Shown: positions 6,806 to 31,098 of the stretch, piece by piece | Position numbering within the stretch: position 1 is the first letter of the stretch | Layout of the letters: every line of letters begins with the position of its first letter | Source of the DNA: a virus | Length of the DNA: 64,000 nt | IMG/VR virus record: IMGVR_UViG_3300033146_005439 | Coordinates: 1-64,000 of that record | Direction: 5' to 3' (one strand) | The notes under the pieces: generated by a model | The model's database searches: none | What the model saw: the letters and a program-made list of their open reading frames with translations, nothing else | What the model was told of the DNA's origin: nothing | Position numbers and translations under genes: made by a program

Positions 6806-6980
6806 TAGGTGTCTCCTTATATACTTCGTTAATACCTTTTAATTCTAAGTCAATAGCCATACGCATTAATTGATCATATTCTTCAAAAAAACCCCTATCT
6901 CTTGCTATTTCTGCGATCATTCTAATATCTTTAGACATACGAATATTTTTATTAAAATAATATTTTAATTTAAGTAGCAT
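6786..6980 (-). CDS. hypothetical protein
   Basis: 64 aa; overlaps both neighbours. Confidence 0.55.
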   Translation of the reverse strand: MLLKLKYYFNKNIRMSKDIRMIAEIARDRGFFEEYDQLMRMAIDLELKGINEVYKETPNEKSKM

Positions 6981-8091
6981 ATTTTACCTTTTTTAACCAT
7001 TCTGAACTTAGATAAGCTGCTTCAAAAAAATTAGCATCCACAGTATAACCAGTTAGCCATTTAATTACTCTAACATCTGCAGTAGTTATAGGCTTATTAA
7101 TTTTTATAAGACCTCCAGAAATTTTACTACAATCAGCTGTAGGAAATTCACAAATACCAGACTTCTTTAAAATACAAGTATGATTTTCTTTATAAATTAA
7201 TTCATGCTCAAAAGGAACGAGGTCACTTGAAACATTTAAAGAAGCTCTGTTCTTTTTTGCTTCCATACATTTAAATTCCATAATACACCCTTTACAACCT
7301 ACTTCAGAAGGTCTATAATAATGGGCGTTATAATCTCTATCTAAATTATGAGTATAAGAAATTAAACAAGAAGTTTTACTAAAAATAGGCACATCTAATT
7401 CTTTAGCACGTCCTTTAATATAATTAAGCCTATCTAAAGAAATCATCTTTTTATGTCCAAACTTATATCCAGGATAAGGTTGTAAGTCATATCCTCTAGA
7501 CTGCCAAATCTTAACAACATAAGGCTTTCCTTGTAAACCTGAATAACCTACAGCTAAATCATAATAACGTGCTAAATTTAATACATAATCTATTGATTCT
7601 TCACTATCATTTACATTATAAATAATAGGCCTAAATTCAATAGAATACTTATACTGATGTCTTCTATTAAAAGTTTTATGTAAATTAAGCTCAAAAGAAT
7701 CTTTTGAAACACCATTATACTTAATAGGACCATTTTCTAAACCAAAAGTACTAAATGCAAAATGTAGATCTAAATCAAAAGGCCTATCAGGAAACTTGCT
7801 AAAATCACCTTTAGTTATAACAACAACAGGGCCTTTATGTCTAACTTTTTCTAAATTTTCTAAAATAGTAACAGTATTAGCTATTTGAAGTAAAGGATCA
7901 CCGTAAAAAATATTAACTACCACAGGTAATTTGGTAAAAATACTATTTATATCACTCGGCATTGTTGTATAACTAATATTCTTAGACCATTCATCCATTA
8001 ATCTACAGTACTTACATTTAAAACATGTAGTTAAAGAATTACCTATACAAATAAAAGATTTTGAAATATATAAATCATGTAAATAATCCAT
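6970..8091 (-). CDS. radical SAM-like Fe-S protein of unknown function
   Basis: N-terminal CFKCKYC (CxxCxYC variant of CxxxCxxC); GDP, VITK and RPIIxxVND barrel motifs; extra C-terminal cysteines (KTSC, CKGC...C, C...C...C). Confidence 0.75.
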   Translation of the reverse strand: MDYLHDLYISKSFICIGNSLTTCFKCKYCRLMDEWSKNISYTTMPSDINSIFTKLPVVVNIFYGDPLLQIANTVTILENLEKVRHKGPVVVITKGDFSKFPDRPFDLDLHFAFSTFGLENGPIKYNGVSKDSFELNLHKTFNRRHQYKYSIEFRPIIYNVNDSEESIDYVLNLARYYDLAVGYSGLQGKPYVVKIWQSRGYDLQPYPGYKFGHKKMISLDRLNYIKGRAKELDVPIFSKTSCLISYTHNLDRDYNAHYYRPSEVGCKGCIMEFKCMEAKKNRASLNVSSDLVPFEHELIYKENHTCILKKSGICEFPTADCSKISGGLIKINKPITTADVRVIKWLTGYTVDANFFEAAYLSSEWLKKVKYAT

Positions 8092-8101
8092 AAAAATACC
8101 T

Positions 8102-8500
8102 TTAATATTTCTTAATAATAAGCTCAGGTTCTTTTTCTAAAAGCCTTGTAGCTAAATCATCATAAGTTATTAAATAGTCCAAAAAAGTATCAATTTCCTT
8201 ATCATGATTTAAGCGCCACTCCATAGCTGTATCATAACAAGTACTATTTAAGGGATAATCTAAAGCAGCCATATAAATTATCACCTCTTTTTGAGCTTCT
8301 TTTAATTTAGTACAATCATTTATATTAGTATTTTTAGTTAAACAGTCCTCCATAACATTTATACTATTATTTAAAGCTGTTTGTGCTTTAGATAAATCGC
8401 CTGAAATATCACAAGGAGGCTTAAAAGATTCTTGTGCTAAAAGAGTACTACTAAAAAATAATAGAATAAATAAACAATACATAAACTTAGCCATTATCAT
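8102..8500 (-). CDS. predicted secreted/periplasmic protein
   Basis: Basic then hydrophobic N-terminus ending LLA|QE (Sec-type signal); four Cys in the mature part. Confidence 0.65.
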   Translation of the reverse strand: MIMAKFMYCLFILLFFSSTLLAQESFKPPCDISGDLSKAQTALNNSINVMEDCLTKNTNINDCTKLKEAQKEVIIYMAALDYPLNSTCYDTAMEWRLNHDKEIDTFLDYLITYDDLATRLLEKEPELIIKKY

Positions 8501-8933
8501 CTCCTTTAATATTATTTAAATGTTCTATACATCTATTATACACAAAAGACTTAATTAAATGTACATAACTTAAATACCAATCTGTATCCGCCCAATGTAC
8601 TGGCGCTGTTTTAATTACTAAATCTTGTAAAGCTAAAACTTGTGTATGACATAAGTTATACTGTTCATAAGTTCTTTCAGCACACATATTATTTGTATAA
8701 TTACGAGCTTTTAAATTATGAATTAAATATAAAATAGCTATATCTGAAGCTCTATTAGCTATATCATAACAATTTTCTGGCGTTTCCGGATATTTCTCTG
8801 ATGTAAATAAAGTGCTTTCTTTATAAGTATCCTTTAAATCTTTATAAAACATATTTGTAGGCAACACCGCCCTAGCAGAAGTACTCATAAACAGTACAAA
8901 TAGTATAACATAAGTTTGTTTTAAAATCAACAT
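8487..8933 (-). CDS. predicted secreted/periplasmic protein
   Basis: Signal-like N-terminus ending ARA|VL; four Cys in the mature part. Confidence 0.65.
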   Translation of the reverse strand: MLILKQTYVILFVLFMSTSARAVLPTNMFYKDLKDTYKESTLFTSEKYPETPENCYDIANRASDIAILYLIHNLKARNYTNNMCAERTYEQYNLCHTQVLALQDLVIKTAPVHWADTDWYLSYVHLIKSFVYNRCIEHLNNIKGDDNG

Positions 8934-9922
8934 AAATAAGCCTCCTTAGAAATAACTTCTTCAGTTTTAGGCCCAAAACCTAAATGAGTAACTTCAGGTA
9001 ATTTAGTTAATAAAGTATTTAAAGCTTCTTTATTTAAATAATTACAAAAATTCAAAAAAACATAATCTGGTTTTAAATCTCTTAAAGCATCTTTATATTG
9101 CCAAAAAGAAAAAGAAGCTACACGTCTAACACGTTTAGTATTAGTTGTATATTCAGTAGCTAATTTTAAATCTTCCCAAGAAGTTTCTACGCTGTCATCA
9201 TAAAAAGAACCTGAATAACCATTAGGTAAATTACCTACTCGTATAGGATAGGTTCTAATAGTCATAAAAACATTTCCTAAATAAGCTGGATGTAAGTCAC
9301 ATTCATTCAAAGCTCCTTGTACTGTAATATTTCTACTCGTACAATAAGGATAAAATTTAGAATTCAATGATAAACTATAACCTTGAGGTACTTCTAAAAA
9401 AGCAGTAAGACCTTTTTCTAAAGAAGTAGCTAAATCAAAATCTTGTATAAATTCTTGAAGTTCTTTTATGTCTTTAGCCACTTTAGCTGTTCTATTAATC
9501 TTACGAGCCAAAGCAGAACCTACCCCATTTTGTGTAGAAGAAATTTTTTGTATAGGACCTTTTTTTTCAAATAATATATCTTCATCACTTATAATTGTTG
9601 CATTTTTATGTATATACAAACGTTCTTTATCAATTTTATATAAATCTAGTTCTTTTAATAATATACTTGGATTAATAATAGATCCTGAAGGTAAATAAAT
9701 AAAAGAGTCGGGATTAATAATAGCTGAAACAGGTAGTTGTTTTACTACACATTTTTCACCATATAAATAGAAAGTGTGCCCTGCATTAGGCCCTGAAATA
9801 GAAACAGCAATATCTATAGTATAATGCTTACTTAAATAAGCAGCAAATAAACCTTTACCTGTAGAACCAAACTGACCATCAATTAAAATATTTAATTTTC
9901 CTTTTTTAAACAATGTATTCAC
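8927..9922 (-). CDS. purZ: N6-succino-2-amino-2'-deoxyadenylate synthase PurZ (PurA paralogue)
   Basis: QFGSTGKG (Ser where PurA has the catalytic Asp of GDEGKG), PNAGHT, QGYSLSLN-FYPYCTSR, PIRVG, TTNTKRVRRV, PDYVFLNFCNYL (PurA: TKLD), LGFGP. Short 331-aa form. Confidence 0.9.
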   Translation of the reverse strand: MNTLFKKGKLNILIDGQFGSTGKGLFAAYLSKHYTIDIAVSISGPNAGHTFYLYGEKCVVKQLPVSAIINPDSFIYLPSGSIINPSILLKELDLYKIDKERLYIHKNATIISDEDILFEKKGPIQKISSTQNGVGSALARKINRTAKVAKDIKELQEFIQDFDLATSLEKGLTAFLEVPQGYSLSLNSKFYPYCTSRNITVQGALNECDLHPAYLGNVFMTIRTYPIRVGNLPNGYSGSFYDDSVETSWEDLKLATEYTTNTKRVRRVASFSFWQYKDALRDLKPDYVFLNFCNYLNKEALNTLLTKLPEVTHLGFGPKTEEVISKEAYLC

Positions 9923-10595
9923 CTATAAACTCATTTAAAATGTCGAGCTCTTTTAAAGATCTAGGATATTTTCTGCCTAAAACAATAAAATCTCCTCCGG
10001 CACGTAAAACCTCAGAAAAAGTTCCTACATGAACTTGATTTTTATAATCAGCAAGCTGCTTCTTATCTAATACTACTCCTGGAGTTAAAGTCTTTAAATT
10101 AAAACGTTTAGCTAAATAAATATAACTACTGGGAATAACAACACCAAAAGATACTTTATGTTTAGTATTAAAACTAGCTATAGTTGCACACATTAAAGTA
10201 TAAATATAAGATATTCTTTCAGTATCTAACATACCAGAAGAACTCAACATAGATACAAAAAATAAAAAAATACCATGCTCTTTGGCAGCTTTATAAGCAG
10301 CCTCTACAGAAGTTTCATTAAAATTAGCATAAGTTATAGTTAAATATTTAGTCTTACCTGAAAGTTCTCTAATATAATTAGTAATAGTTTCAGGAGTATC
10401 GTAAAGTTTTAAATCTAAAAATAAATCGACTTTATATTTTTCAGCCAAATTTACTATGTATGTATGTTCAAAACGATGCCATAAACTATTTAATTTAATA
10501 GAATGCACTCTACCAGAACTTTGCTTAAAATAGTACTCTAGACCTTGAGGACTTTGACAAATATCTATAGCTCTAACAATAATATTCATTACCAA
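9906..10595 (-). CDS. pyrF: orotidine-5'-phosphate decarboxylase-like protein
   Basis: FLDLKLYDTPET (DxKxxDxxxT), IKL, LTPGV, GGDFIVLGR. Divergent. Confidence 0.75.
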   Translation of the reverse strand: MVMNIIVRAIDICQSPQGLEYYFKQSSGRVHSIKLNSLWHRFEHTYIVNLAEKYKVDLFLDLKLYDTPETITNYIRELSGKTKYLTITYANFNETSVEAAYKAAKEHGIFLFFVSMLSSSGMLDTERISYIYTLMCATIASFNTKHKVSFGVVIPSSYIYLAKRFNLKTLTPGVVLDKKQLADYKNQVHVGTFSEVLRAGGDFIVLGRKYPRSLKELDILNEFIGEYIV

Positions 10596-10801
10596 ACCTG
10601 TCTTGTAGTAGTAGGATCTAAAACAAAAGATTGTCTTCTAGAAACTTGTTTAACATGTGTATTATATAAAATATCTACCCCATGATTATATTCTATAATA
10701 TCACTAGTAACAGTTATATTGGATATCACTTTTAAATCAACACCAATAAGCTTCTTTAACAAAAATATTCTTAACTTAAATAAGTATTTAGTAAACATCA
10801 T
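10589..10801 (-). CDS. hypothetical protein
   Basis: 70 aa; overlaps both neighbours. Confidence 0.55.
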   Translation of the reverse strand: MMFTKYLFKLRIFLLKKLIGVDLKVISNITVTSDIIEYNHGVDILYNTHVKQVSRRQSFVLDPTTTRQVW

Positions 10802-11229
10802 AGACTCCTTATAACATCACTTACTAACTTCCCATCAACAGAAGAACCAAAATGTTTCTTAACTATACCTATAGCCTGCATTTTATTTTTTAATTTTGAA
10901 AAATCTATAGTATTAATATAATCTTTTAATTCTTCTTCAGAAATTTGTGTAGGCATATAAGAAGTAGCAACTAACTTAAGAGTACTTTGTGCAGACTTAG
11001 TTAATTCTGCTGTCTTATCTTCAGCTTTAATGATACCAGTTAAAACCATAATAACTTGTTCATCTGTAGGAATACCAATCACATAAGATTTACCAATCTT
11101 AGTTCCTTTTAAACGAGCTAATTCTCCCATTATAACTTTTAAATCATTAGCTAAATCAGTATTACCTTCTTTACGTGCCTTATTTAAGTCGTTCTTAATT
11201 CTATCATAAGTAAGCATAATAAACTCCAA
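10798..11229 (-). CDS. GatB/YqeY domain protein
   Basis: IKNDLNKARKEG, TDEQVI, YMPTQISEEEL, VDGKLVSDVIR. Confidence 0.85.
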   Translation of the reverse strand: MEFIMLTYDRIKNDLNKARKEGNTDLANDLKVIMGELARLKGTKIGKSYVIGIPTDEQVIMVLTGIIKAEDKTAELTKSAQSTLKLVATSYMPTQISEEELKDYINTIDFSKLKNKMQAIGIVKKHFGSSVDGKLVSDVIRSL

Positions 11230-11232
11230 AAG

Positions 11233-11805
11233 TTAAGTCCATAAATACATTCTAATATGCATTAAACGTTTTAAATTATAAGTATCTTCTAAATCCCAAA
11301 AAGTTTCTAATCTATTTAATTCTTTATAAATTTTTAAATTTTTATCTGTTGATTCTAACCAATGCACATCATCGGTAGCTTCATATAAAAAGTCGATAAT
11401 TAAATCTCGTTTAGGTCTTTCATTTTTCCACCACCAATATAAATCTTCAATTTCAGAAGCTACACAAGCATGATATTTATCAGAATCCCAATTAATAGTT
11501 TCAAAACATTCTTCTTGTTCAACAAATCTTTCTAAAAACTTAAAATTCACATGTAACATCAATTCTGGTATATCATAATATTGTGTAGGATCAAGCCCTG
11601 TGGGACACTTACTATAATTATACTTAGGAATATACTTATGCTTAAATTCCCATAATTTTTGTTCAAAATAAAACTTTTTATAACTAAAATATTTTGGAAT
11701 TGTTTCTTTAAAAAAATATTGTATTTTATGATTCCGTTTATTATAAACATCTATCTCATGAAATTCCTGAAGTGTTCCAACTTTAGGGGTTTTTTTATAA
11801 ACCAT
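11233..11805 (-). CDS. phage hypothetical protein
   Basis: 190 aa; LYWWWK...RP and a C-terminal RMYLWT. Confidence 0.7.
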   Translation of the reverse strand: MVYKKTPKVGTLQEFHEIDVYNKRNHKIQYFFKETIPKYFSYKKFYFEQKLWEFKHKYIPKYNYSKCPTGLDPTQYYDIPELMLHVNFKFLERFVEQEECFETINWDSDKYHACVASEIEDLYWWWKNERPKRDLIIDFLYEATDDVHWLESTDKNLKIYKELNRLETFWDLEDTYNLKRLMHIRMYLWT

Positions 11806-11819
11806 AATTTCCTAAACTC

Positions 11820-12065
11820 CTAGTTTTTATGTAACTTTTTATGACAATCTTCACATAAAGTTATAAGATTCTTCATTGGCTCATTATAAGGATACTTTTT
11901 TGTATATTTAGAATGATGCACACATAAAGTTTTATCAGTAGCCCCACAAGTTCTACATGCCCATTTATCTCTTTTAAATACTAATAATCTTTTCTTTTGC
12001 CATTTAGGATGCTTAAGAGCTCTAGCATATTCCGCTTTAGTTAATCTTTTATATTTTCTAGTCAT
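11820..12065 (-). CDS. small HNH endonuclease
   Basis: RDKWACRTC...VHH...NLITLCEDCHKKLH. Confidence 0.9.
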   Translation of the reverse strand: MTRKYKRLTKAEYARALKHPKWQKKRLLVFKRDKWACRTCGATDKTLCVHHSKYTKKYPYNEPMKNLITLCEDCHKKLHKN

Positions 12066-12175: not shown

Positions 12176-14560
12176 TTAACCACACCTACTATAAGAACAA
12201 TTAATACATTTTATGCAACCCTCACTAAATATTAAAGACTCTTCTCCACAAGAAGGGCATTTATTTTCTCCAGCTTTTAAATTATAAGTTCCTATATATT
12301 TAGAAAGCACCCTAGAAATAGCTGTAGAAAAAGCAGTAATATTACCGTTACTCTTCTTTAATTGCTCTACTATATAACGTGGGAGAACACCATGCCTTAA
12401 ACCTAAACTTAAAAGTCTTGTCATAGCTTTCTGATCATCATCCATTAAAATACCAGCTAAATCTTTATACACAACAGGTGATCTACGAATAACTACTTCT
12501 AATTCATATTTTCCTCCACCTTGTTTACGTACTATACCATTCTTACAAGATTTTGGCAAGTATAAATCTTCAGTTGAACCACAAAAAATTTCATAAGGTT
12601 TATCATCTAATAAACCAATCAATACCGTCCACATTTCACCTTTAATAGAAGTATGTATAATATCACAAGGTATTTCTTTAGGTCTTTTAGGAGCACAATT
12701 AGGTATAATAGAAACAGGCCTATTATCATCAGCACATACTTTATCCGAACTTTTAGATAAAACAGATCCTATAATATCATTAGGTCTATACGTGGTGCAC
12801 CCTTTAAGACCTAATCTATGTGCTCTAATAAAAATATCTTTATATTCTTCAAAAGAATAATCTACAGGTACATTAATAGTTTTACTAATAGAAGCACAAA
12901 TATACTTTTGAAAAGCAGCTTGCATATTTAAATGAGCATTTACAGATAAATTATCAGTTGTTTCAAAATAATCAGGCACCTCAGAATCTTCACCAAACAT
13001 ATTTGTATAAAGTTCCCAAGAATAAGTTCTAACCGCTTCAACAGTTGTCTCTTCACTGGAACGTTTAACCTTTCTATCATATTCTATAGAAAAAATAGGT
13101 TCAACACCTCCAGATACATTATCCATTACAAGACTGGTAGTACCTGTAGGAGCTATAGTAAGATATCTACTATTACGTACCCCATGTTTAAGTATTGCCA
13201 TTTTTAATTCTTCAGGTAAATCTGATAAAAAAGGACTTTCTACAAATTGAGTTTTCTGAATAGCATCAAAAGTATCCCATTCTTTAAAAGGCCCTAAAAA
13301 TTTAGATAATTCATTACCTACAGCATAAGCTTCATTACGCATAACTTTAGCAATTTCCTCTGCTAAATCTACTGCCTCTAAAGAAGAGTATTTTAATTTA
13401 AGCATAGCAAACATATCACCAAGACCAGTTAAACCTAAACCTATTAAACGTTTTTGTCTAACTATTTCAGCTTGTTCTTTTAAAGGATAATAATTTTTAT
13501 CCAAAATTCTATCTAAAGCGGCCACCATAAAACGCACTACTTTTTTAAACCTTAAAAAATCAAAAGAAGCTTTTTTTGTAAAAGGATTATCTACAAACTG
13601 AGTTAAATTAATAGAACCTAAATTACAAGAAGCATGTGGTATAAGAGGTTCTTCACCACAAGGATTTGTAGCCAAAATATATTCAGACATCCATAAAGTA
13701 TTATAACGATTAATAGTATCTTCAAATAAAATTCCTGGTTCAGCAAAATCATAATTAGAACGAATAATAAGATCCCATAGTTCTCTAGCAGGTAAAGTTT
13801 CATAAACTTCTACAGGATATCCTTTATCTAACCAAGCCTTTATATTACCGTCCCATTCAATGTCATATTGCTCAAAAGAAGTATCTGGAAAAATCAAATC
13901 CCAATCCTTATCTTGTTTTAAAGCTTCTATAAAAGCATCAGAAATATAAACACTTAAATTAAAATTTTTATAAGGTTTATATTTATCAGGTAATTTATCG
14001 CCCTCTCTTTTACAAATAATAAAATCTTTAATTTCAGGATGCCATACACCTAATACTCCAATCTGAGCTCCGCGCCTATTTCCACCAGCTTCTATAGTAC
14101 CACAAGTAGTATCAAAAATACTCATAAAAGATAATACACCTGTAGATCTAGAACCAGTTGACTTTATTACAGAATTCTTAGGTCTTAAAATACTAAAAGA
14201 ATAACCTATACCACCACCAGCTTTCATCACAATAGCTGCTTGAGACACAGCATTCATAATAGATACCATAGAATCTTTTTTAATAGGCAGAACAAAACAA
14301 TTAGATAAAGTTTGGTTCTTTTTATTTGTGCCTAAAGCATACAAACCTCTTCCCGCAGTTAAAGCCAAATGATTACTAAAAATGTCATAATAAGTATCTT
14401 TATAATCATCACCTAATATATTTTTATATGCATTGTCCTCTTCATCAGAAATATTATCAAAAATACCAACCACAATACGCTTATAAAAATCTTCTTCCGA
14501 TTCTTCATTATTTCTATATTTCAACTCCCATATATCTCTACTAAATGCTGTTTTTATCAT
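12176..14560 (-). CDS. nrdJ: class II (adenosylcobalamin-dependent) ribonucleotide reductase
   Basis: SNCFV, GGGIG, RRGA, NPCGE, CNLGSINL, TIAPTGTTS, ISKTIN, GLKGCTTYR; C-terminal domain ends CPSC...CINC. No NrdB nearby. Confidence 0.92.
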   Translation of the reverse strand: MIKTAFSRDIWELKYRNNEESEEDFYKRIVVGIFDNISDEEDNAYKNILGDDYKDTYYDIFSNHLALTAGRGLYALGTNKKNQTLSNCFVLPIKKDSMVSIMNAVSQAAIVMKAGGGIGYSFSILRPKNSVIKSTGSRSTGVLSFMSIFDTTCGTIEAGGNRRGAQIGVLGVWHPEIKDFIICKREGDKLPDKYKPYKNFNLSVYISDAFIEALKQDKDWDLIFPDTSFEQYDIEWDGNIKAWLDKGYPVEVYETLPARELWDLIIRSNYDFAEPGILFEDTINRYNTLWMSEYILATNPCGEEPLIPHASCNLGSINLTQFVDNPFTKKASFDFLRFKKVVRFMVAALDRILDKNYYPLKEQAEIVRQKRLIGLGLTGLGDMFAMLKLKYSSLEAVDLAEEIAKVMRNEAYAVGNELSKFLGPFKEWDTFDAIQKTQFVESPFLSDLPEELKMAILKHGVRNSRYLTIAPTGTTSLVMDNVSGGVEPIFSIEYDRKVKRSSEETTVEAVRTYSWELYTNMFGEDSEVPDYFETTDNLSVNAHLNMQAAFQKYICASISKTINVPVDYSFEEYKDIFIRAHRLGLKGCTTYRPNDIIGSVLSKSSDKVCADDNRPVSIIPNCAPKRPKEIPCDIIHTSIKGEMWTVLIGLLDDKPYEIFCGSTEDLYLPKSCKNGIVRKQGGGKYELEVVIRRSPVVYKDLAGILMDDDQKAMTRLLSLGLRHGVLPRYIVEQLKKSNGNITAFSTAISRVLSKYIGTYNLKAGENKCPSCGEESLIFSEGCIKCINCSYSRCG

Positions 14561-14674: not shown

Positions 14675-15115
14675 TTAAACTACTCCTGTTGAACCAAGAC
14701 CACCTCTATCTTTATTACCCAAAGTATGTACTATTTCAAAATATAAAGTTGGTTGTTTTTTATTTATTCTAAATTGACAAATACGTTCATTAAATCTTAT
14801 TAACGTATCTTTTAAAGCTATAGCTGGAAAATATAAAATATCATTATCCCCATTATAACTTTCATCAATTACTCCAAAATGATTAGCCTGTATAATACTA
14901 AAATTCTTATAAGTACTACTACGAGGCACTATATTCATTTCAAAACCAGGAGGTAACTCTACCGATAAACCTAAGGAAATCAATTTAAAATCACCAGCTT
15001 TTAATTCTACAGTTTCTGCAGCTCTTAAATCTATCCAATCACCTTGGTCTAAACGTTGAGGCAAAATTAAATCATCTACATGGGGTTTAATACGTATAAA
15101 ATAATTAGCAAGCAT
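14675..15115 (-). CDS. dut: trimeric dUTPase
   Basis: [32 protein letters not shown]. Start placed after GGAGG at 15129-15125. Confidence 0.93.
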
Positions 15116-15119
15116 CACT

Positions 15120-15353
15120 CTATTCCTCCACAATCTCATCAATATACAATCTTTTTTGATCTACCTTACAACCTAAAATAACATAGGCACTTACTTTTTT
15201 ATATTCATTTTCTACTTCAGAAGAATAGTAAAATAAAGCACACCAATTACCACATAAAGAATTTTCATTATATGGACATTGACTATTAATATAAATAGGT
15301 TTCTTTGATTGCATTGATTCAAATGCTTTTCCTACATTTTTAAAAACTTTCAT
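15120..15353 (-). CDS. hypothetical Cys-rich protein
   Basis: 77 aa; CPY...CGNWCALF...GC. Confidence 0.65.
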
Positions 15354-15362: not shown

Positions 15363-15725
15363 CTAATTATTTTTTATAATATAATGTGGTATAAATTCAA
15401 TAATCTTATCTTCAATAAGCACTCTAAAACTTACAGTAGCTATAGGTTGCTTTTCCAATTTAAAAAGTTCATTCGAGTGTAACATAATAAAACCTTTTTG
15501 TAAAGTAAACTCTATAGGAAAAAATTCCAAGCTTTCAATTTCTAATAAAATATCTTCAGGATATTCTAAAAAAATTCCTGTGAAAATAGTATCTTGCTTT
15601 ACATTAACCAAATGATTATTATTAAATAAAATTAATAAAGAATCATCTGCTAAATCGTACATAACATCTTCCGAATAAACATTTACCAAAACAGGTATAT
15701 CATTTTTTACAACATACATAATCAT
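15363..15725 (-). CDS. hypothetical protein
   Basis: 120 aa; start overlaps the polymerase stop. Confidence 0.6.
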   Translation of the reverse strand: MIMYVVKNDIPVLVNVYSEDVMYDLADDSLLILFNNNHLVNVKQDTIFTGIFLEYPEDILLEIESLEFFPIEFTLQKGFIMLHSNELFKLEKQPIATVSFRVLIEDKIIEFIPHYIIKNN

Positions 15726-18700
15726 TACTCCTGAAATGCTTTACATTTAGAACAAATTAATTTAGAACCATAATGATCATCTGGTACAAATTCCATAACG
15801 TTATGGCCACATTCCTCACCATCAATTTCATTACTACATTCACCTTTAAGCCAACAAGGACCAATGACAGCATCAGTATACATAGGCATTTGTTTAAAAT
15901 ACATATTAAAACCTTCATCTACAGAAGATGTTACAATTTTAGCTACTTCATCTACTTTATCTTTAGGGCATTCTACAACAATTTCATCATGAACACTTAA
16001 CACCAACTTAGCTTCATAAGGCAATTTTGCTAACTTATCCACACAAATAATCATGGCCTTCTTAATTGTGTCTGCATCACTGTTATGGACTATGATTCCA
16101 TTAGCTGTGAAATAATGTATTTTATCGCAAATTAAATCATATGTAGGCTCAACACCCTTGTAATCTAAGCTCACAACCTTTACAAAATCATAATCTAAAA
16201 ATGAAGACAAAAACTCTTTGGCCTTACCCTCAGGTAATTTTTCATAGAATTTTCTCCAACTTAAAAAAGAACACTTACCCAACTTAAATCTTCTTAACTG
16301 TGCCTTCTCATTAGATGTAAAATCAGTAAAATAAGTAGCAGTCTTCCTAAGTTCCCTTTCTATAAGTTTTGGTATAAACGAAGGAACTATACTACCATCA
16401 CCCGTTTTATAATTATACTTATTTGTCTCTAAAGCTTTATTTTTATAATCAACAGAAAAACCTATTAATTCTTTAAATACAGCATTATATCTTTTATGAA
16501 TCTGTAAACGATAAGTAGTTAAACTATTATCATTTTTATATTCTTTTAAGTTAGAATTAATACCTAAAGAAAATAATAAGTTTTGTACACCTGATGCTAA
16601 TTTTTTAGAAACAGTTGTATAAGAAGGACCACTATTTTTTGTAACACCACCATCTGTAGAAAACAAGCCATTCAATAAAGCACCTTTATTCTCTAAACTC
16701 TCAGTATAAAAATACTCTGGAATACTTTTATCTTTATGTATCACATAATCTAGGCCTATATGTTTTAAAAAACCTCTTATAACAACAGAGTATATATTAT
16801 AAGTTGGTAAATCTTCTCTGATTTCATCGTCCCTATGCTGTACACCTAACCTTACACTATACCCAAAAAGTTCTTCTATAAAAGCACAAAACTTGTCTGC
16901 CAACTCTCTTTGTTGTTTAGGACATACAAATCTGATCTGGTTATGCTGGTTATAACTACCATCTCCAATTAAACAACCTATAACAAAAGCTAATTTAGGG
17001 TTCATAGTAGCTGGGTAACTATATTCCTTATATGTTTCTCTCCAATGGCCCTTCTCATATTTATACCCAGATATATCTGTAGTTATACCATTTATAGGGG
17101 TCAAAGGCACCAACAAAAAATCCTCCTTTACATCTATATCTTTTACAACCTTATCCAACAATACTCCAGAATTATTACTTACAACTGGGATTTTATGATT
17201 TAAAGTGATGCCTAAAACTGAGCCATTAGACAACTTTAAATCATAAACTTCTTTTTTACCGGAATATACACCTAGGGCTGAGTCTAAACCAAAGCCTGTT
17301 TCCAATGTAACCTTTCTATCTATATAATTACCAATGTAACCTAACCCGTTTATATTACTATCAAAAACCAAACACCCTTGAATACGATGGTTTTTAGCCT
17401 TACGTTTAACTGCACCAACCACTTTTTTACGCATAGGGTCCGAATAATCAGGTATCTTATAAAAACGTCTTCTACCAGTAATAGTAGTACTACTATGTTC
17501 TTTAATAGCATTATTAGCTGATTCTTCTAACCAAGCAGCTAGTTTAGAATTAACCTTAAAATAACTATTAATAAGTTTTTGTGCTTCATCCTTAGATATA
17601 CCTAACCTTTTACCTAAACCTGTCGCAGAAATACCATAAGCTAAACCAAAAGAAATAGCTTTACTGGCTGTTCTCTGAGGTTTTTTTACTTCTTTATAAT
17701 CTACCTCAAAAATCCTTGAAGCATTAACTGTATGTAAGTCTAAATTATTATGATGAGTTTCAATAAAGTTTGGCTCTCCTGACATATCCCCCATAATAGC
17801 TAATTCTGCAGAATTTTGATCTACAGTAACTAAAGCCTTATCCTCACCAGCAATAAAACAACTTCTAAATTTTTGTTTAGCAGGTATATTCTGTAAATTA
17901 GGATTATTAGAACTCATTCTACCTGTAGAAACCATTTGTTTAAATTGAGTATGAAGTCGTCCTGTCTTTTCATGAATACGTTCTACAACAGCTTCACCAT
18001 AAGTAGTATACAATTTATATAATTTTCTATATTTTAAAATATCATCTATAACAGGATGGCCCGCATATCTTTTTAAAGCAGCTGCATCTGTTTTTTCTAA
18101 ACTTAAACCTAATTTGGTTAAAGCATCTAAAAGTTGTGCTGGACTATCTATATTAATAGACGCTACACCAAAAAGAGTTGTTTGATCTTGAGTTTTAGAT
18201 AAACGATTTTCTATATTAACTTTTAAAGCCTCACCCTCTTTCTCGGCCTCCTGCATAATAATGCGCCATTTTTCTATATCTAAAGTAATACCATTAAGTT
18301 CCATTTCAGCTAAAGGTTTAGTAAACTGCATTTCTAATTCAACAGCTTCATGTAAATTATATTCAGAAACTTTCTGTAATTGCATATTACGTATTATATC
18401 TAAAGTACAAACATCTGTAGCAGCATAAGATAACTGACTTTCTGTAAATTCTTGATAATAATCTTGAAAAGTACCTCTTGGTTCTTTATCCATTTCCATA
18501 TTTAAGTATTGTCTAACTAAAGCAGCTAAACTAAAACCTCGTTGTTTTACACCTAAATTTAACAATTGTTCTACCAACATAGTATCATAAATATTCTCAA
18601 TGTAGTAACCAAACTGAGCTTTTAATACTTTCATATCATAGTTACAATTCTGTAATATTTTTAAAATATTTTTATCTGAAAATAAGTCTTTAAACAAAGA

Positions 18701-18943
18701 ACCATGTATAGATACATCAGGTAAATCACTTCTAACATCAAATACAAAAGCTTTACCAGGGATACCTATCTGAATAAGGGTGGTTTGACAAGTAAAAGGA
18801 TCTAAACCTGTACCCTCAGTATCTAACTCCAAAACAGGGAAATTAGATAAATAAGACAAGACTCTACGAGCTTCCTCTTCTGTTTTTATATATTCAAAAG
18901 GTGGTGGTGGAACTGATACCCTATTAGCCGACATTATACTCAT
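15725..18943 (-). CDS. polA: family A DNA polymerase (3'-5' exonuclease plus polymerase, no 5'-3' exonuclease), intein-containing
   Basis: Exonuclease motifs DTEGTGL, NCNYD, DTM, YAATD. Polymerase motifs TGRMSSNNPNLQNIP, VDQNSAEL (A), RTASKAISFGLAYG (B), IQG|SDAD, VHDEIV (C). Confidence 0.96.
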   Translation of the reverse strand: MSIMSANRVSVPPPPFEYIKTEEEARRVLSYLSNFPVLELDTEGTGLDPFTCQTTLIQIGIPGKAFVFDVRSDLPDVSIHGSLFKDLFSDKNILKILQNCNYDMKVLKAQFGYYIENIYDTMLVEQLLNLGVKQRGFSLAALVRQYLNMEMDKEPRGTFQDYYQEFTESQLSYAATDVCTLDIIRNMQLQKVSEYNLHEAVELEMQFTKPLAEMELNGITLDIEKWRIIMQEAEKEGEALKVNIENRLSKTQDQTTLFGVASINIDSPAQLLDALTKLGLSLEKTDAAALKRYAGHPVIDDILKYRKLYKLYTTYGEAVVERIHEKTGRLHTQFKQMVSTGRMSSNNPNLQNIPAKQKFRSCFIAGEDKALVTVDQNSAELAIMGDMSGEPNFIETHHNNLDLHTVNASRIFEVDYKEVKKPQRTASKAISFGLAYGISATGLGKRLGISKDEAQKLINSYFKVNSKLAAWLEESANNAIKEHSSTTITGRRRFYKIPDYSDPMRKKVVGAVKRKAKNHRIQGCLVFDSNINGLGYIGNYIDRKVTLETGFGLDSALGVYSGKKEVYDLKLSNGSVLGITLNHKIPVVSNNSGVLLDKVVKDIDVKEDFLLVPLTPINGITTDISGYKYEKGHWRETYKEYSYPATMNPKLAFVIGCLIGDGSYNQHNQIRFVCPKQQRELADKFCAFIEELFGYSVRLGVQHRDDEIREDLPTYNIYSVVIRGFLKHIGLDYVIHKDKSIPEYFYTESLENKGALLNGLFSTDGGVTKNSGPSYTTVSKKLASGVQNLLFSLGINSNLKEYKNDNSLTTYRLQIHKRYNAVFKELIGFSVDYKNKALETNKYNYKTGDGSIVPSFIPKLIERELRKTATYFTDFTSNEKAQLRRFKLGKCSFLSWRKFYEKLPEGKAKEFLSSFLDYDFVKVVSLDYKGVEPTYDLICDKIHYFTANGIIVHNSDADTIKKAMIICVDKLAKLPYEAKLVLSVHDEIVVECPKDKVDEVAKIVTSSVDEGFNMYFKQMPMYTDAVIGPCWLKGECSNEIDGEECGHNVMEFVPDDHYGSKLICSKCKAFQE
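16082..17374 (-). mobile_element. intein with LAGLIDADG homing endonuclease (431 aa) in PolA
   Basis: Begins at Cys (CLVFDS) after IQG. Block B ITLNH; LAGLIDADG blocks VIGCLIGDG and LNGLFSTDG. Ends YDL...ANGIIVHN followed by Ser+1; removal restores IQG-SDAD. Confidence 0.95.
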
Positions 18944-18947
18944 ATAA

Positions 18948-20024
18948 TTACCTCATTAGTACAGTTACTTTAAAAATATAATTATAAAAAGAATATTCAG
19001 AAGCCTTACCTTGAATGTAAATAGGCTCTAATAAAACATCTAATGATTTAGATAATTTGTGCCCTTGACTTACAGAAGACGCTTTTTTTAAACACCCCAC
19101 AAAATAACCTGTGACAGTTAGACGAATAGTTTCTACAGGATACTTTTTAATTAATTTACCAAAACTATTTATAGAATTTTTATATTCACCTTTAAACATA
19201 TAACGACATAAATCTATAACAGCAGGATCAGCTACATCTGTGCCTTCAGGTAATAAAAAAGTCCTAACACTATTTAAATCCCATGAACCTTCTGAAATCA
19301 CAGTACCTAAATAACCTAAAGCTTTCCTTAAAATTCCTTTAGACATATCAACAATGTATTGTAAAACTTCAATATTATAATTAATACCATCAAACTGACA
19401 TACATTTTCCAAAGCTTCTAACATTTCTACATCATCAATTGCAGAAAATACAAAATGATCACATCTATCTAAAAAAGCGTTGTCTCCTCGTTTATTAGCT
19501 AATTTTTCAGGCTCATTAGTACAAAAAATAAAATATACATGTTCATAAGCATCCTCCATAACTTTTAAAAGTAAATCTTTTGCTGCAGCTGTTAACTTAT
19601 GGCACTCATCAAAAATAATAATTTTATTCTTTAAACTAAATGCAGAAAAAGATAAATCTTTAACAATAGAAGCTATATCAGCTTTACCACTTTCAGAGCC
19701 TACATTTATTTCTAAATAATCTACACTATTTTGTGCTAAAATAGATAAACAATTAGCACATTTTAAACAAGGTTTAGTAGGATCAGTAGTTTCCGTACAA
19801 TTCAAACTCAAAGCTAAGATACGAGCCATAGTAGTTTTACCTGTCCCTGCAGGACCACTAAAAAGCATAGTATGTGTTAATTTATTTGTTTTCAACCTTT
19901 GAGACATAATCTTTTTTACAGAAGCATTACCTAAGAGTTCTTCTACTCTACAGGGTCTATATACGGTTTTTAAATCGTTTGCAGCTCCTTTTATCTGTCT
20001 TTTTATTAACATAAGTAACCTCAC
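18948..20024 (-). CDS. dnaX: clamp loader, DNA polymerase III gamma/tau-like
   Basis: YRP, GPAGTGKTT, LNC...PCLKCANC zinc module, DECH, FCTNE, DRC. Confidence 0.92.
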   Translation of the reverse strand: MRLLMLIKRQIKGAANDLKTVYRPCRVEELLGNASVKKIMSQRLKTNKLTHTMLFSGPAGTGKTTMARILALSLNCTETTDPTKPCLKCANCLSILAQNSVDYLEINVGSESGKADIASIVKDLSFSAFSLKNKIIIFDECHKLTAAAKDLLLKVMEDAYEHVYFIFCTNEPEKLANKRGDNAFLDRCDHFVFSAIDDVEMLEALENVCQFDGINYNIEVLQYIVDMSKGILRKALGYLGTVISEGSWDLNSVRTFLLPEGTDVADPAVIDLCRYMFKGEYKNSINSFGKLIKKYPVETIRLTVTGYFVGCLKKASSVSQGHKLSKSLDVLLEPIYIQGKASEYSFYNYIFKVTVLMR

Positions 20025-20482
20025 ATAAAATATCGTATATAAATTTCAGTTAATACACCATCACCTTTTAAAGCTTTTAATTGTTTAGCTTTCCTTCGAA
20101 TTAATAAATTTGCATTATTAGGACATACTGTATTAGTTGCCAAACAAGCACATTCTAAATCAGATAATTTGCTGGCTACAAATAAAACTTCTTCTGCTGT
20201 AACATTATACCGTCTCAAAATTTGCAAAAAAACATCTTTCTTACTTTTTTTAGCCCAATAAAAAGGAATATTTTTATTACGAAAAAAATTATAAGAAATT
20301 TTATTATCTGAAGATAAAAAAACAATAGGAAACTTACACTTTAGTTTATTTATAACTTCAAGGTCATCCATATTAAACAATTTATAAGGTACATTACTTA
20401 ACTCATCATAAAAAACTTTACCTTCTGTTAATACACCATCTACTTCAGAAACAATTAATTTTATATTACTCATATCACTCAT
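20021..20482 (-). CDS. KdsC/YrbI-like HAD protein with degenerate active site
   Basis: SEVDGVLTEG (canonical DVDGVLTDG), FNMDD, C-terminal KGDGVLTE. The GDDxxD motif is replaced by ASKLSD. Confidence 0.75.
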   Translation of the reverse strand: MSDMSNIKLIVSEVDGVLTEGKVFYDELSNVPYKLFNMDDLEVINKLKCKFPIVFLSSDNKISYNFFRNKNIPFYWAKKSKKDVFLQILRRYNVTAEEVLFVASKLSDLECACLATNTVCPNNANLLIRRKAKQLKALKGDGVLTEIYIRYFM

Positions 20483-20483
20483 T

Positions 20484-21365
20484 TTAATTCACCTTTTTAC
20501 CACATAGCATACAAACACCTTGCTTATCAATATTTAGTAAACAAGAATGTTCTTTTGAAATTAAAGACATAGTTTCTATACAAAGAACACATTTATCGGT
20601 CCTCTTAGCAATTTCTATTGCTTGTGCATAATGACTTTCTACAAATACTGTAGCATTACTTTGATTAAAATGCAATGCTTTATATTCCGGCGTAAAAGAT
20701 TTTTTTCTTCTTTCTACTGCAGTAGAATACGGCTGCATAATTAAATCATTATACAACACCCCATGCTTATCTAACCATGCTTCTGTTATACCCCTCCAAC
20801 GTTCAATTCTATTAGTACATATACTATGTATCTTAACTTGAGGTAATAAAAAAGGAAACACACCTTTAGAAATTTCATTCATATAAATAGAACCATCATC
20901 ATCAAATACTGCTGGATCAGTACAAATAACACCGTCCATATCAAACATATAGCTCTTGGTGGCTTCAATACCTAAAAAATTCCATTCAAACATACGAGGC
21001 CCATTTAATACTTCTGCATATAGATCTACTTTATTAATAGCTTTTGGGTGAGCGTATATAGCACAAGTAATACAATCATAGTTACGAGCTTCTTGTAAGC
21101 CTTTCTGCATAGCAGCGCCGCCATAAATACTATCATCTACTAAAAGAACCTTTCTACCCTTGGCTCTAAATAAAGAACCTCTGGCACCTACTTTTGGAAC
21201 TTCTCCTATAGCAGCTAAAGGTACTCCTAATAACGTAGCTAAAATCGAAGCAGGTAACATACCACTTCTAGGAATACCTATAACTAAACCTACATCCTTA
21301 GGTATTTTAGAAATTAATTTAGCTTTTATATCAAAACTAAGATCTTTTATAGATTTAAAATTCAT
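20484..21365 (-). CDS. type I phosphoribosyltransferase fused to HAD phosphatase
   Basis: VIGIPRSG and LLVDDSIYGG (PRPP loop), then FDMDGVIC, TNR, K and FVES HAD motifs. Confidence 0.85.
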   Translation of the reverse strand: MNFKSIKDLSFDIKAKLISKIPKDVGLVIGIPRSGMLPASILATLLGVPLAAIGEVPKVGARGSLFRAKGRKVLLVDDSIYGGAAMQKGLQEARNYDCITCAIYAHPKAINKVDLYAEVLNGPRMFEWNFLGIEATKSYMFDMDGVICTDPAVFDDDGSIYMNEISKGVFPFLLPQVKIHSICTNRIERWRGITEAWLDKHGVLYNDLIMQPYSTAVERRKKSFTPEYKALHFNQSNATVFVESHYAQAIEIAKRTDKCVLCIETMSLISKEHSCLLNIDKQGVCMLCGKKVN

Positions 21366-21874
21366 GATTTATTATATTTAATCCTCCATTCAGACCAAGA
21401 AATATTAAAAAATTCCTCGCAAGAAATTTCTTTTAAAAAAAATAACCACTCCTCTTCAGTAGGAGGTGCCTGCATAGTAATAAAAGTCACACCTGAATAT
21501 ATAAGATAAGCTTTTATCATCTCATTAACAAAAATATAAAATCTCTGGGCTAAGTGCTGTTGAGACATTATATGTGCAACATCAATAAATTTAGCTAAAT
21601 ACTGTAGAGAAGCTCTTTTTGATAAACTTTTAATACAGGAAGACTCTTCTCTAATTAAATGTACATATAAAGCTTCTGGATATTTATGTATCACTTGAGG
21701 TAACTTCCAAAACAACCGAGGATCACTCTCTATATGATTATCAGGATAAACATAATCTATATTAGTACTTAAAGTATTAGTTTCATGTGCTGACGTATAA
21801 TAAGGAAAATAACTACAAGCTTTACTAAAAGTTGTAGTACAACACCTACCTGTGCCTAAAATAAAAACCCTCAC
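21362..21874 (-). CDS. sulfotransferase-like / P-loop protein
   Basis: VFILGTGRCCTTT (5'-PSB-like), HE, VHLIRE...SL (3'-PB-like). Confidence 0.6.
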   Translation of the reverse strand: MRVFILGTGRCCTTTFSKACSYFPYYTSAHETNTLSTNIDYVYPDNHIESDPRLFWKLPQVIHKYPEALYVHLIREESSCIKSLSKRASLQYLAKFIDVAHIMSQQHLAQRFYIFVNEMIKAYLIYSGVTFITMQAPPTEEEWLFFLKEISCEEFFNISWSEWRIKYNKS

Positions 21875-22395
21875 TATTTTACTCCTGTTAAACTAAGATT
21901 AATATACCCATGATCATGCCCTCTTATAGGAGCCCCATTCAATATACTAGAAAAACCAGCTAAAGACAACAATTTTTTTAAATATCTTTCGTCAAACACA
22001 GCTCGATGAATATTACCAGGACCACCGTAAGTAAAAATTCTGCCATTTAACCATGTCATAAAATCATCATCATCATTAAATTTGCGCCAAGAATCACCAC
22101 AATGTTTATTTAAATAACAATGAACTAACTTTTCAAAATCAGGAACATGTAATTCTAAACAAGCGTCTTTTTTCAAAACACGGTAAGCTTCTTTTAAAGC
22201 ATCTAAACTCCTATACCACCATATATGCTCTAAAACATGACTAGCATAAATCAAATCTATAGAATTATCTTTAAAAGGTAAAGAATCAATCCCCCAACGT
22301 ACTACAATATCTATGTTATCAGCCTCATAAGGCCCTAAAGTTACCCAAGAATTATCAATTCTTTTATTTCCTGGCCCAATCTCAACTTTATTCAT
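21874..22395 (-). CDS. class I SAM-dependent methyltransferase
   Basis: VEIGPG, LPFKDNSIDLIYASHVLEH, RVLK...VPD. Confidence 0.9.
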   Translation of the reverse strand: MNKVEIGPGNKRIDNSWVTLGPYEADNIDIVVRWGIDSLPFKDNSIDLIYASHVLEHIWWYRSLDALKEAYRVLKKDACLELHVPDFEKLVHCYLNKHCGDSWRKFNDDDDFMTWLNGRIFTYGGPGNIHRAVFDERYLKKLLSLAGFSSILNGAPIRGHDHGYINLSLTGVK

Positions 22396-22402
22396 AATAA
22401 CC

Positions 22403-23311
22403 TCAACTAGTGTAATTTTTAGGTGCCCATTTTAAAGTACCATCCCAATCTAATAATTTATCAGAAAAAACAGCATAATCATTATACTGTTTAGATCCTG
22501 TAGCTTGATACATAGATTCAGGTGTTTTTATAATATCTTTTAAATAGTTATAACGCTCTTCAAAAGTACTGCCTTTTAAACTGCCTCCTGGCCTATTATA
22601 CCCAAAAAACCCTATATGCATCTGTCTATTAACAGATGGCATGATTACATTAAGATCTTCTTCTATTCTAGCTACATCACATAACCTATTTATCAAACCA
22701 GCTTGTTGATGATGCATATCAGTTTTATATCTATAAGTACGATCATGCCAATAACTTTTGTACAAGTCATTTAAAGCACACACAAAAGCGGCTGGATGCT
22801 CATAAAAAGCTTCTTTTGCGCAAGGCCTTACAAAAGTATTAAAAAAGTATTTATTGATAACAGGTGCTTGTGCTGCATAATGCCTATCTAATCTTATATC
22901 ATGAACATCTCCTGAATCATTAAAATTAAAAGAAGATATAACGGACCAAGAAGGCCCAATTAATTTAAATACAGCATCTAAATAAGCAAAATAAGTCTCA
23001 TGAATAAGTATATCATCCTCAATATAAAGTAACCAATCTTGGGTTTTATCAAAAACATATTTAAAACCTTCTAAAATATTAGCAGACAAACCAAATCTTT
23101 GTTTTCTATGTACACATTCATAAGGATAAGGATATTTTTCTATAATATGTAGTATCTCTTGAGGTGCCTCAAATTCAATAATAAAAATAGTTTTCAAAGT
23201 ATAATCTAACTTAAAAAATTCTCTAGCACGTATTTCATAATCAATACTTAATTGTAGCATTTCAGGTCTATTAAAAACCGGACGCATAATATAACGAGTA
23301 GTCATAATCAC
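22403..23311 (-). CDS. GT-A fold glycosyltransferase
   Basis: PVFNRPEML, GLSANILEG, YIEDD, PSVNRQMHIG. Confidence 0.75.
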   Translation of the reverse strand: MIMTTRYIMRPVFNRPEMLQLSIDYEIRAREFFKLDYTLKTIFIIEFEAPQEILHIIEKYPYPYECVHRKQRFGLSANILEGFKYVFDKTQDWLLYIEDDILIHETYFAYLDAVFKLIGPSWSVISSFNFNDSGDVHDIRLDRHYAAQAPVINKYFFNTFVRPCAKEAFYEHPAAFVCALNDLYKSYWHDRTYRYKTDMHHQQAGLINRLCDVARIEEDLNVIMPSVNRQMHIGFFGYNRPGGSLKGSTFEERYNYLKDIIKTPESMYQATGSKQYNDYAVFSDKLLDWDGTLKWAPKNYTS

Positions 23312-23790
23312 ACCTTTTTAGTTAATAAAATAAAATTATTACCTTCTTCTTTATATTCTTGTGGAGCTAAACCAGCTTGACTACAAAAATCAGATAACCA
23401 TTGCCGATCAAAACCTATATAATGAAAATTTTCTTTATACGTTTGACCGCCATATAAAAGCCAACTAGTATGTTGTGCTTTCCCAGGTGTATAATTAGCA
23501 CATATAACGGCTAGATTAGGCACTCTAAATTCTATAAAACCTCCCTTCTTTAAAACCCTTGCCCATTCAATTAAAATGGCTGATGTTCTTGATACAGGAA
23601 AATGTTCTAAAATATCAGAAGCTAATATATAATCAAAGGATTCTTCAGAATAACGAGATAAATCGGTAACATCACCAATAACATCTACATTAGGGAGTGT
23701 TTCTCTAATATCATAATTAGTACATTTATATCCTTTAGGATATTCTTCGTAAGTTCTATTACCACAGCCTAAATTTAAAGTTTTTTTCAT
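23308..23790 (-). CDS. class I SAM-dependent methyltransferase
   Basis: LNLGCG, DVIGD, ILASDILEH, EWARVLKKGG...VPN. Confidence 0.9.
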   Translation of the reverse strand: MKKTLNLGCGNRTYEEYPKGYKCTNYDIRETLPNVDVIGDVTDLSRYSEESFDYILASDILEHFPVSRTSAILIEWARVLKKGGFIEFRVPNLAVICANYTPGKAQHTSWLLYGGQTYKENFHYIGFDRQWLSDFCSQAGLAPQEYKEEGNNFILLTKKV

Positions 23791-23793
23791 TTA

Positions 23794-26327: not shown

Positions 26328-26337
26328 CTCCTGCTTT

Positions 26338-26946
26338 TTAATTAGGTAATTTATTAGGTAAATAATCTACATATTGGCATTGTTCTTTTATACTACTAAT
26401 AAAATGGCGCCATTGTTTTAAATTATGATTCCATCTTTGATTAAACATATTTCTTAATACTTTATAATTAGTATTGACTATACGAGATTGTAAAAATCCT
26501 TCTGGAATATTCCATTTAACTCGTTGTAAATCTTCTCCTTTTAAACGTTTTGTATTATTAAAATTATCAGTAACCTCTATTAGAATATCATTAAATATAT
26601 TAATAATCCTACCATCAGTACCTTCTTCAAAATCAAATATAGTTGTAGGTCTTTTTTGAATAGTATGCATAGTAGATGCACTATTTTTAGTAGTCCCTAC
26701 TCTATAAGTATCAAATTCTTGCCACCAACCTCTGGGCGCCTTAATAAAAATCCATAATTGCATAGATTCCAAAAATTTATTATGCCCGCCATCATTAAAA
26801 GCCATCCCACGACAAGTTTTCTTCATTCTATCAAAACGTTCTATTGTCCACCACTCATCAAAAGATATAGCCTCATCTTTAAAAGACAAAGAAGTTCCTG
26901 CTAAAGCCCATTCATAACCAGCTTCACCTAAAATTTTAACCTCCAT
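26338..26946 (-). CDS. divergent ThyX-like (flavin-dependent thymidylate synthase fold) protein
   Basis: GHNKFLE, APRGWWQEFDTYR...NSASTMH, IPEG, NYKVLRN...QR.H: ThyX-like layout with TYR in place of RHR. Confidence 0.65.
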   Translation of the reverse strand: MEVKILGEAGYEWALAGTSLSFKDEAISFDEWWTIERFDRMKKTCRGMAFNDGGHNKFLESMQLWIFIKAPRGWWQEFDTYRVGTTKNSASTMHTIQKRPTTIFDFEEGTDGRIINIFNDILIEVTDNFNNTKRLKGEDLQRVKWNIPEGFLQSRIVNTNYKVLRNMFNQRWNHNLKQWRHFISSIKEQCQYVDYLPNKLPN

Positions 26947-26957
26947 ATAAATCCCCC

Positions 26958-30794: not shown

Positions 30795-31098
30795 ATTTAA
30801 CCTCCCATTCAAAACCACAATCTAAACATTTATAAATATTATTATTTTTAAAAGAGGCTGCACCACATAATAAACAAGTATAACCATAATCTACCATATT
30901 ATTAACATTAACAGCTTGATTATAATATTCAAAAACTTCTGAAGGTAATAATAATAAAACTTCCTGTTTAGGTATATACAATTCTGTATCAGGTTTAATA
31001 AAAGTCACACCCTTACATTTATAACAAATATAATAAAACTTATTTTTAGTTGTATAAAAAAGTGAATTATTTATATCACACTCAAGACATTTAACCAT
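30784..31098 (-). CDS. double Zn-ribbon protein
   Basis: Four CxxC pairs; ends CLDCGFEWE. Confidence 0.7.

Follow-up and report, generated by a model that had tools for sequence, protein, structure and literature searches.

To our knowledge, every phage with chemically proven 2-aminoadenine (Z) in its DNA has a genome of ~40 kb and encodes PurZ together with dATP-destroying enzymes and, usually, a Z-selective polymerase. Here we ask what a purZ gene does in a large, AT-rich phage in which those partners were not found. The gene lies at 8927–9922 on the minus strand of a 64,000-nucleotide stretch of viral DNA (the window), which is the first 64 kb of the 111,382-bp IMG/VR record IMGVR_UViG_3300033146_005439 (G000; linear, with no Ns). 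It is a single intact open reading frame (ORF) for a 331-residue protein of the succino-amino-deoxyadenylate synthase type. A preliminary description, drawn from the letters of the window, had proposed a Z-containing and possibly only partly substituted genome; the PurZ identity, the AT-richness and the lack of DatZ and MazZ on which this was built all held up in our analysis, and the Z content itself is a prediction. The reading that we favour, with somewhat less than even confidence, is that PurZ works, that dZTP competes with dATP and that the virion DNA is a mixture of A and Z, i.e. that substitution is partial.

The motifs quoted in the preliminary description are all present in the protein: GSTGKG (residues 19–24), PNAGHT (45–50), FYPYCTSR (190–197), TTNTK (259–263) and FLNFCNYL (289–296). 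The protein matched Pfam PF00709 (3e-29) and PHROG 1211, ‘2-aminooxy adenylosuccinate synthetase’ (1.6e-61), and its top NCBIfam model was NF038379, PurZ (236.5 bits, E 3.6e-70); PurA models gave 42–170 bits against cut-offs of 368–700. The best solved relatives were the PurZ enzymes of phiVC8 (6FM1, 3e-50, over residues 10–323) and S-2L (7ODX, 4e-46), with weaker matches to an archaeal PurA (5K7X, 4e-31), to 7VF6 (3e-30) and to bacterial PurA (~1e-14). The same ranking was seen using phmmer with PurZ, PurZ0, PurA and helper proteins taken from annotated phage records: the PurZ references matched at 8e-72 (Ochrobactrum phage OH), 5e-53 (phiVC8) and 1e-46 (SH-Ab 15497), the PurZ0 of Wayne and Sapo at ~1e-29 and one bacterial PurA at 4e-17. 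Judged by sequence, these matches reflect homology to the PurZ family and not chance. With the listed start codon, GTG at 9922, purZ shares 17 nt with the 3′ end of the upstream PyrF-like gene; a TTG at 9913 is more likely to be the true start since it follows AGGTGA by 7 nt. More than 100 metagenomic homologues, at 50–66% identity, keep GS[TE]GKG and [FL]LNFxN. Because the motifs are retained so widely, the gene appears to be under selection and, with the ORF intact, is likely to be functional.

Residues that separate PurZ from PurA by their specificity for dGMP and ATP have been listed (bioRxiv 10.1101/2025.10.22.683976), and we compared them in an alignment of 83 sequences. All of the reported specificity residues were PurZ-type in the 331-residue protein: phiVC8 F12, S14, P233, Y244, W252, T262, S273, F295 and Y298 correspond here to F18, S20, P226, Y241, W249, T259, S270, F292 and Y295. 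The histidine of NAGHT (H49) is a further key residue. S20, in GSTGKG, aligns both to S14 of phiVC8 and to the catalytic aspartate of PurA (Asp13). F292 and Y295, in FLNFCNYL, form an ATP-type pocket (F295/Y298 in phiVC8) that replaces the GTP-pocket Lys/Asp (TKxD) of PurA; these two alignment columns hold K and V in PurA, and M/F and Q in PurZ0. NFCN occupies the TKxD position, and both Asp13 and the GTP-specific TKxD are missing from the protein. A quick IQ-TREE phylogeny, in which a single PurA outgroup sits on a long branch, placed the protein within an 80-row PurZ clade (SH-aLRT 96), with PurZ0 and PurA outside. The preliminary description had called the gene purZ from the serine at the aspartate position and NFxN for TKxD, and had named a PurA/PurZ0/PurZ phylogeny as a check. 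Both substitutions, the full set of specificity residues, NF038379 as the best model and a position in the tree with PurZ and not PurA agree with that call, and we classify the predicted enzyme as a new, divergent member of PurZ.

The PurZ proteins of phiVC8 (6FM1/6FKO/6TNH), S-2L (7ODX) and Ochrobactrum phage vB_OspP_OH belong to the same family, length class and major tree clade, and align to the protein over the full length at 37–42% identity. They have in common with it the GSTGKG serine, the NAGHT histidine, the TTxTKxVRR aspartate loop and the F/Y ATP pocket of FLNFCNYL. Their genomic setting is different, however: in these phages of 38–45 kb, purZ adjoins datZ, mazZ and dpoZ (PrimPol in S-2L), whereas here the phage is large and AT-rich, purZ is flanked by a PyrF-like gene and unknown ORFs, and those helpers were not found.

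The size of the phage bears on how far that absence can be taken. G000 has 29.4% GC, in line with the AT-rich genome described from the window, and a CheckV completeness of 42%. A 161-kb record (G001; CheckV 61%) is colinear with it (amino-acid identity ~50%) and runs 45 kb past the left end of G000, and both estimates lead to a genome of ~265 kb. The earlier label ‘jumbo-type’, whose only basis is these completeness estimates, is plausible. Megablast of the purZ region against known phages gave no match, and the structural proteins of G000 are almost unrecognisable to PHROGs and Pfam.

Over the whole of G000, Pfam HD gave only a 17-bit match inside a 7470-residue ORF, and there was no match to HD_3, YfbR-like, MazG, DUF550 (PF04447), DUF5664 (PF18909) or NDT (PF05014). 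When phmmer was run with DatZ, MazZ, DUF5664-DUF550, DmtZ and DutZ of five characterised phages, only a dUTPase (Dut) was matched in G000, weakly, and the DmtZ queries from Sapo and Wayne found nothing credible there. Custom profiles built from 46 DatZ, 42 MazZ and 9 DUF5664 sequences recovered their own references and matched nothing in G000 or G001, including with the filters off. Searches with single sequences likewise found no helper in G001, which, like G000, lacks DatZ, MazZ, DUF550, DUF5664, DmtZ and a DpoZ-clade polymerase. No purB or nucleotide kinase was seen among the scanned ORFs (nearly all of those of at least 100 residues, the 7470-residue ORF excluded). The preliminary description had reported no DatZ, MazZ, HD-type dATPase or DUF550 protein in the 64 kb; this is correct for the window and now extends to the full 111 kb, but it does not stand as a genome-wide absence since G000 is only ~42% complete. 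The ‘spliced PolA’ of that description does carry a LAGLIDADG intein. Its best match to DpoZ was E 1e-7, compared with 1e-90 to 1e-250 for the DpoZ of small-phage loci, and on these values we place it outside the DpoZ clade. Two HD proteins are encoded by G001, both in the part missing from G000, and were rejected as DatZ: one is a PgpH-like c-di-AMP phosphodiesterase (4S1B, 5e-31) and the other is SpoT-like (HD_4). The HD proteins of G004 were likewise rejected, being SpoT-like and a CCA-adding enzyme.

To place the locus amongst its relatives, we compared 81 purZ loci from IMG/VR (80 from a profile search plus L005 from a single-protein search). On contigs no longer than 60 kb (41–67% GC), DatZ, MazZ or DpoZ lay within 10 kb of purZ in 69/69 loci, and most had all three. 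None of the 12 loci nearest to the window purZ had any of these genes within the same distance; most of the 12 are on contigs of 67–287 kb. The absence of helpers near purZ is a clade-level pattern. One 20-row clade (SH-aLRT 90) unites the PurZ proteins of these loci with long-contig metagenomic hits, and is nested in a group (SH-aLRT 99) of otherwise small-phage PurZ with full clusters. The other large contigs (67–287 kb; L004, L023, L024, L028, L031, L033, L040 and L055) carry PurZ of this subclade at 46–57% identity, again with no DatZ, MazZ or DpoZ within 10 kb, and only L004, the 161-kb record, comes from the same kind of phage as the window. Only one alignment column cleanly tells the large-phage subclade from small-phage PurZ, with Ser in 95% of the former and Gln in 93% of the latter. 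Here it is S244 (about 9191–9193 of the window), on a loop flanked by the conserved residues Y241 and W249.

Two of the large genomes are nearly or fully complete: G006 (287 kb, inverted terminal repeats, 100% complete) and G007 (254 kb, 93%). They are related to each other, and have in common with the window lineage only PurZ, plus a ribonucleotide reductase (RNR) in G007 and a Macro-domain protein that is also found in G001. G006 had no DatZ, MazZ, HD or MazG match. Since the two are unrelated to the window lineage apart from these genes, the comparison suggests that purZ moved alone between unrelated large-phage lineages. The only second gene common to all purZ-bearing large-phage lineages was that for the Macro-domain protein, which is not a plausible Z-pathway partner, and the only recurrent neighbours of purZ in the clade were Dut (4 of 12 loci, window included) and RNR (3 of 12). 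Our literature search returned nothing relevant on PurZ or diaminopurine together with jumbo phages, nor on PurZ with crAss. The combination of purZ alone, a large phage and a non-DpoZ replisome differs from the Z-phage groups in PMC12884076 and bioRxiv 10.1101/2025.10.22.683976.

The family assignment, the residues, the genes around purZ and the lack of helpers in the 111 kb and 161 kb of sequence are observed; from them we infer how the enzyme acts, which host enzymes it draws on and how much Z enters the DNA. In an ATP-dependent reaction, PurZ would join dGMP to aspartate and so form N6-succino-2-amino-dAMP, which host PurB, guanylate kinase and nucleoside-diphosphate kinase would convert to dZTP as in the small Z phages; completion of the route by host PurB and kinases is established for S-2L and phiVC8 (PMC8342488). 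Expression of purZ during DNA synthesis is probable because the gene sits in the replication block, is translationally coupled to the PyrF-like gene and lies 2–6 kb from NrdJ, Dut and the polymerase. With no dATP-removing enzyme and no Z-selective DpoZ in the sequenced part of the lineage, dZTP would have to compete with dATP, and Z with A for incorporation, leading to mixed A/Z virion DNA. Incomplete Z clusters in Escherichia coli gave lower substitution than the triad (PMC8342488). Partial Z may suffice to blunt some restriction enzymes, and PurZ may in addition let a genome of 70% A+T draw on excess dG nucleotides for an A-equivalent.

The restriction sites of G000 agree weakly, and indirectly, with partial substitution. 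There, CATG (observed/expected 0.68, z −5.2), GAATTC (6 against 23.7 expected), GTATAC (13 against 33) and GATATC are under-represented, and GC-only tetramers are not avoided. Avoidance is also seen in G001, where the ratio for GATC is 0.74, and a Dam-type methyltransferase lies 1.2 kb from its purZ. In G007, GGATCC is absent where 52 are expected. DNA containing dZ resists or partly resists EcoRI, EcoRV and BamHI (PMC12944874). A fully Z-protected genome would need such avoidance less, and the avoidance of A/T-containing sites therefore counts, weakly, against full substitution.

Several points weigh against a mixed A/Z genome. The NF038379 score of 236.5 bits is below the NCBI strict cut-off of 300, as is that of the PurZ of the 161-kb relative (205 bits); a model that is the best by far, yet under its cut-off, would fit a divergent PurZ branch. 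Site avoidance may instead stem from ancestry, or from enzymes able to cut Z-DNA all the same. At least ~100 kb of the genome of the G000/G001 lineage is unseen. G007 has a DUF5664-type protein (PF18909, 35.5 bits, above cut-off) encoded 123 kb from purZ, so the absence of a helper from an incomplete record proves little. Lastly, like DutZ, the Dut of the window could have dATP and dGTP as substrates.

The last three points, and the ~42% completeness of G000, also support the alternative that Z replaces adenine fully, the latter being kept out by helpers that are either encoded in the unsequenced part or non-homologous, a reading we hold to be somewhat unlikely. Candidates for a non-homologous helper are proofreading by the intein-bearing PolA and the Dut, acting as a dATP/dGTP pyrophosphatase. 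The trimeric Dut (14675–15142, minus strand) is the only candidate dNTP pyrophosphatase in G000. It lies 5 kb from purZ, with synteny conserved in the 161-kb relative, and its recurrence within 10 kb of purZ in a third of the large-phage-clade loci speaks for such a role. Dut-like enzymes (DutZ) have been known since 2026 to stand in for DatZ/MazZ in PurZ0 phages, and DutZ keeps all canonical Dut motifs, so that purine activity is compatible with the sequence (PMC12884076). The motifs are canonical in both groups and fit either substrate range. Overall, the Dut looks like an ordinary YncF-type dUTPase: it is 61% identical over 127 residues to the Bacillus subtilis dUTPases YncF/YosS (2XCD, 2e-50) and 24–25% identical to DutZ. 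Arthrobacter phage Wayne and Gordonia phage Ghobes, with their PurZ0 systems (DutZ, DmtZ, DUF5664-1), also have a Dut-family gene near an adenylosuccinate-synthetase homologue, without DatZ or MazZ. They differ from the locus here in that their synthetase is PurZ0, whereas that of the window is PurZ (8e-72 to PurZ compared with 1e-29 to PurZ0), in having NDT/DmtZ and DUF5664, neither of which was found in G000, and in having DutZ rather than a YncF-like Dut. Along with that YncF-like identity and the avoided A/T-containing sites, full substitution is disfavoured by the 45 kb of extra sequence in G001, where the two HD proteins proved PgpH-like and SpoT-like, and by the complete G006 genome with its lack of DatZ, MazZ, HD and MazG matches.

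Alternatively, PurZ might act on nucleotide pools without placing meaningful Z in the packaged DNA, by draining dGMP/dGTP, by making Z nucleotides for another purpose or by using another substrate. We consider this unlikely. The spread of purZ on its own between unrelated large phages would suit such a role, as would its place among nucleotide-supply genes (PyrF-like, NrdJ, Dut and a phosphoribosyltransferase [PRTase]) and the clade-wide serine at position 244, where 93% of small-phage PurZ have Gln. Yet all of the known residues for dGMP and ATP use are kept, and we see no enzyme to use up dZMP or dZTP. Moreover, ordinary polymerases accept dZTP, which once formed could hardly be kept out of DNA altogether. 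That the gene is decaying, or encodes a plain adenylosuccinate synthetase of the PurA or PurZ0-like kind that uses IMP or GTP, is very improbable: PF00709 also holds PurA and the NF038379 cut-off is not reached, but serine replaces the catalytic Asp, F292/Y295 replace the GTP-pocket Lys/Asp, PurA models score far lower, the tree sets the protein in PurZ apart from PurZ0 and PurA, and the frame is intact and the protein conserved.

Returning to Z in the virion DNA, a broader proposal, which we regard as unlikely at present, is that a purZ subclade has spread alone among unrelated large and jumbo phages, in which ordinary replisomes build Z-containing DNA and DatZ, MazZ and DpoZ are lacking. The ordinary replisome here would be the intein-bearing PolA with the phage's own clamp and clamp loader. 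The PurZ family is already known, and thousands of PurZ homologues have been predicted in viruses. If the proposal is true, there exists either a natural mixed A/Z DNA alphabet or a route of adenine exclusion that has not yet been described, and most base pairs of a 70% A+T genome could carry three hydrogen bonds. A lineage with a lone purZ in phages of 100–290 kb would bear on how common the Z base is, on escape from restriction and on the engineering of Z-DNA with fewer genes, and the pattern can be tested directly on metagenomic DNA.

The gene lies in a long minus-strand block with nucleotide-supply and replication genes. The block encodes DnaN, RecA, DnaB, primase, SSB, DnaJ, RuvC, a PD-(D/E)XK nuclease, glycosyl- and methyltransferases, the PRTase, a clamp loader, PolA with its LAGLIDADG intein, Dut, NrdJ, a YqeY-like protein, the PyrF-like protein, PurZ, two signal-peptide ORFs, a Cys-rich ORF and RNase HII; the ORFs of the window located below are all on the minus strand. 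Immediately upstream of purZ, the gene at 9906–10595 belongs to the OMP-decarboxylase family, with the DxKxxD motif (FLDLKLYD) intact and the GR loop kept, which confirms the PyrF-like neighbour of the preliminary description. It was not found beside purZ in any related locus. The PRTase-domain protein (20484–21365) is encoded 10 kb from it, and the two could be a PyrE/PyrF-like pair supplying pyrimidine nucleotides. Next to the PyrF-like gene is that for a small YqeY/GatB-like protein (10798–11229), which adjoins purZ in the 161-kb relative too. The 190-residue protein at 11233–11805 belongs to a phage-only family. It was considered as a hidden all-alpha MazG-like NTP pyrophosphatase and rejected for want of support, with no Pfam match and only unnamed phage proteins as Atlas neighbours; its AlphaFold prediction was of low quality (pLDDT 62), and with Foldseek no PDB structure reached an E-value under 1. 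The RNR at 12176–14560 is class II (B12-dependent, NrdJ-type) and carries a TSCPD domain at its C-terminus. The family A DNA polymerase at 15725–18943 has a 3′-5′ exonuclease domain, and its intein domains are Intein_splicing, LAGLIDADG_3 and Hom_end; the PolA of the 161-kb relative has 645 residues and no intein.

Directly downstream of purZ are two small overlapping ORFs (8102–8500 and 8487–8933) without a family match. Both have signal-peptide-like N-termini, and fit the ‘secreted’ neighbours described earlier. The ‘radical SAM’ neighbour did not survive: the 373-residue Cys-rich ORF at 6970–8091 had no Pfam or NCBIfam match, and its motif is CxxCxxC rather than the canonical CxxxCxxC.

Elsewhere in the window, an Hsp70/DnaK is encoded (Pfam 4.6e-203 among the scanned ORFs), probably by the left-end ORF at 1–1356, and a full DnaJ with its zinc-finger domain lies at 29970–30818. 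ThyX (Thy1) was weakly matched (E 0.0013, 19 bits) by a 202-residue ORF at 26338–26946. The ORF falls within a cluster (20021–28298) of glycosyltransferases, methyltransferases, a sulfotransferase-like gene and a KdsC-like phosphatase, and may point to a second modification, either of DNA or of glycans. Homing endonuclease genes of the HNH/CapR/DUF723 type are scattered through the replication and structural blocks (11820–12065, 23794–25200 and, in G000 beyond the window, 99567–100982). Beyond the window, a single 7470-codon ORF spans 71610–94022 of G000 and holds the weak 17-bit HD-like match, the only one in the record; a colinear giant ORF in G001 is 49% identical over 2123 residues. In G001, the PgpH-like gene (139,645–140,346; L131:1432–2133) adjoins that for an AAA_28 P-loop protein, and the SpoT-like HD_4 gene is at L133:1348–1872; both are candidate anti-signalling genes. 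The same record encodes a NAMPT-type phosphoribosyltransferase at 156,072–157,484.

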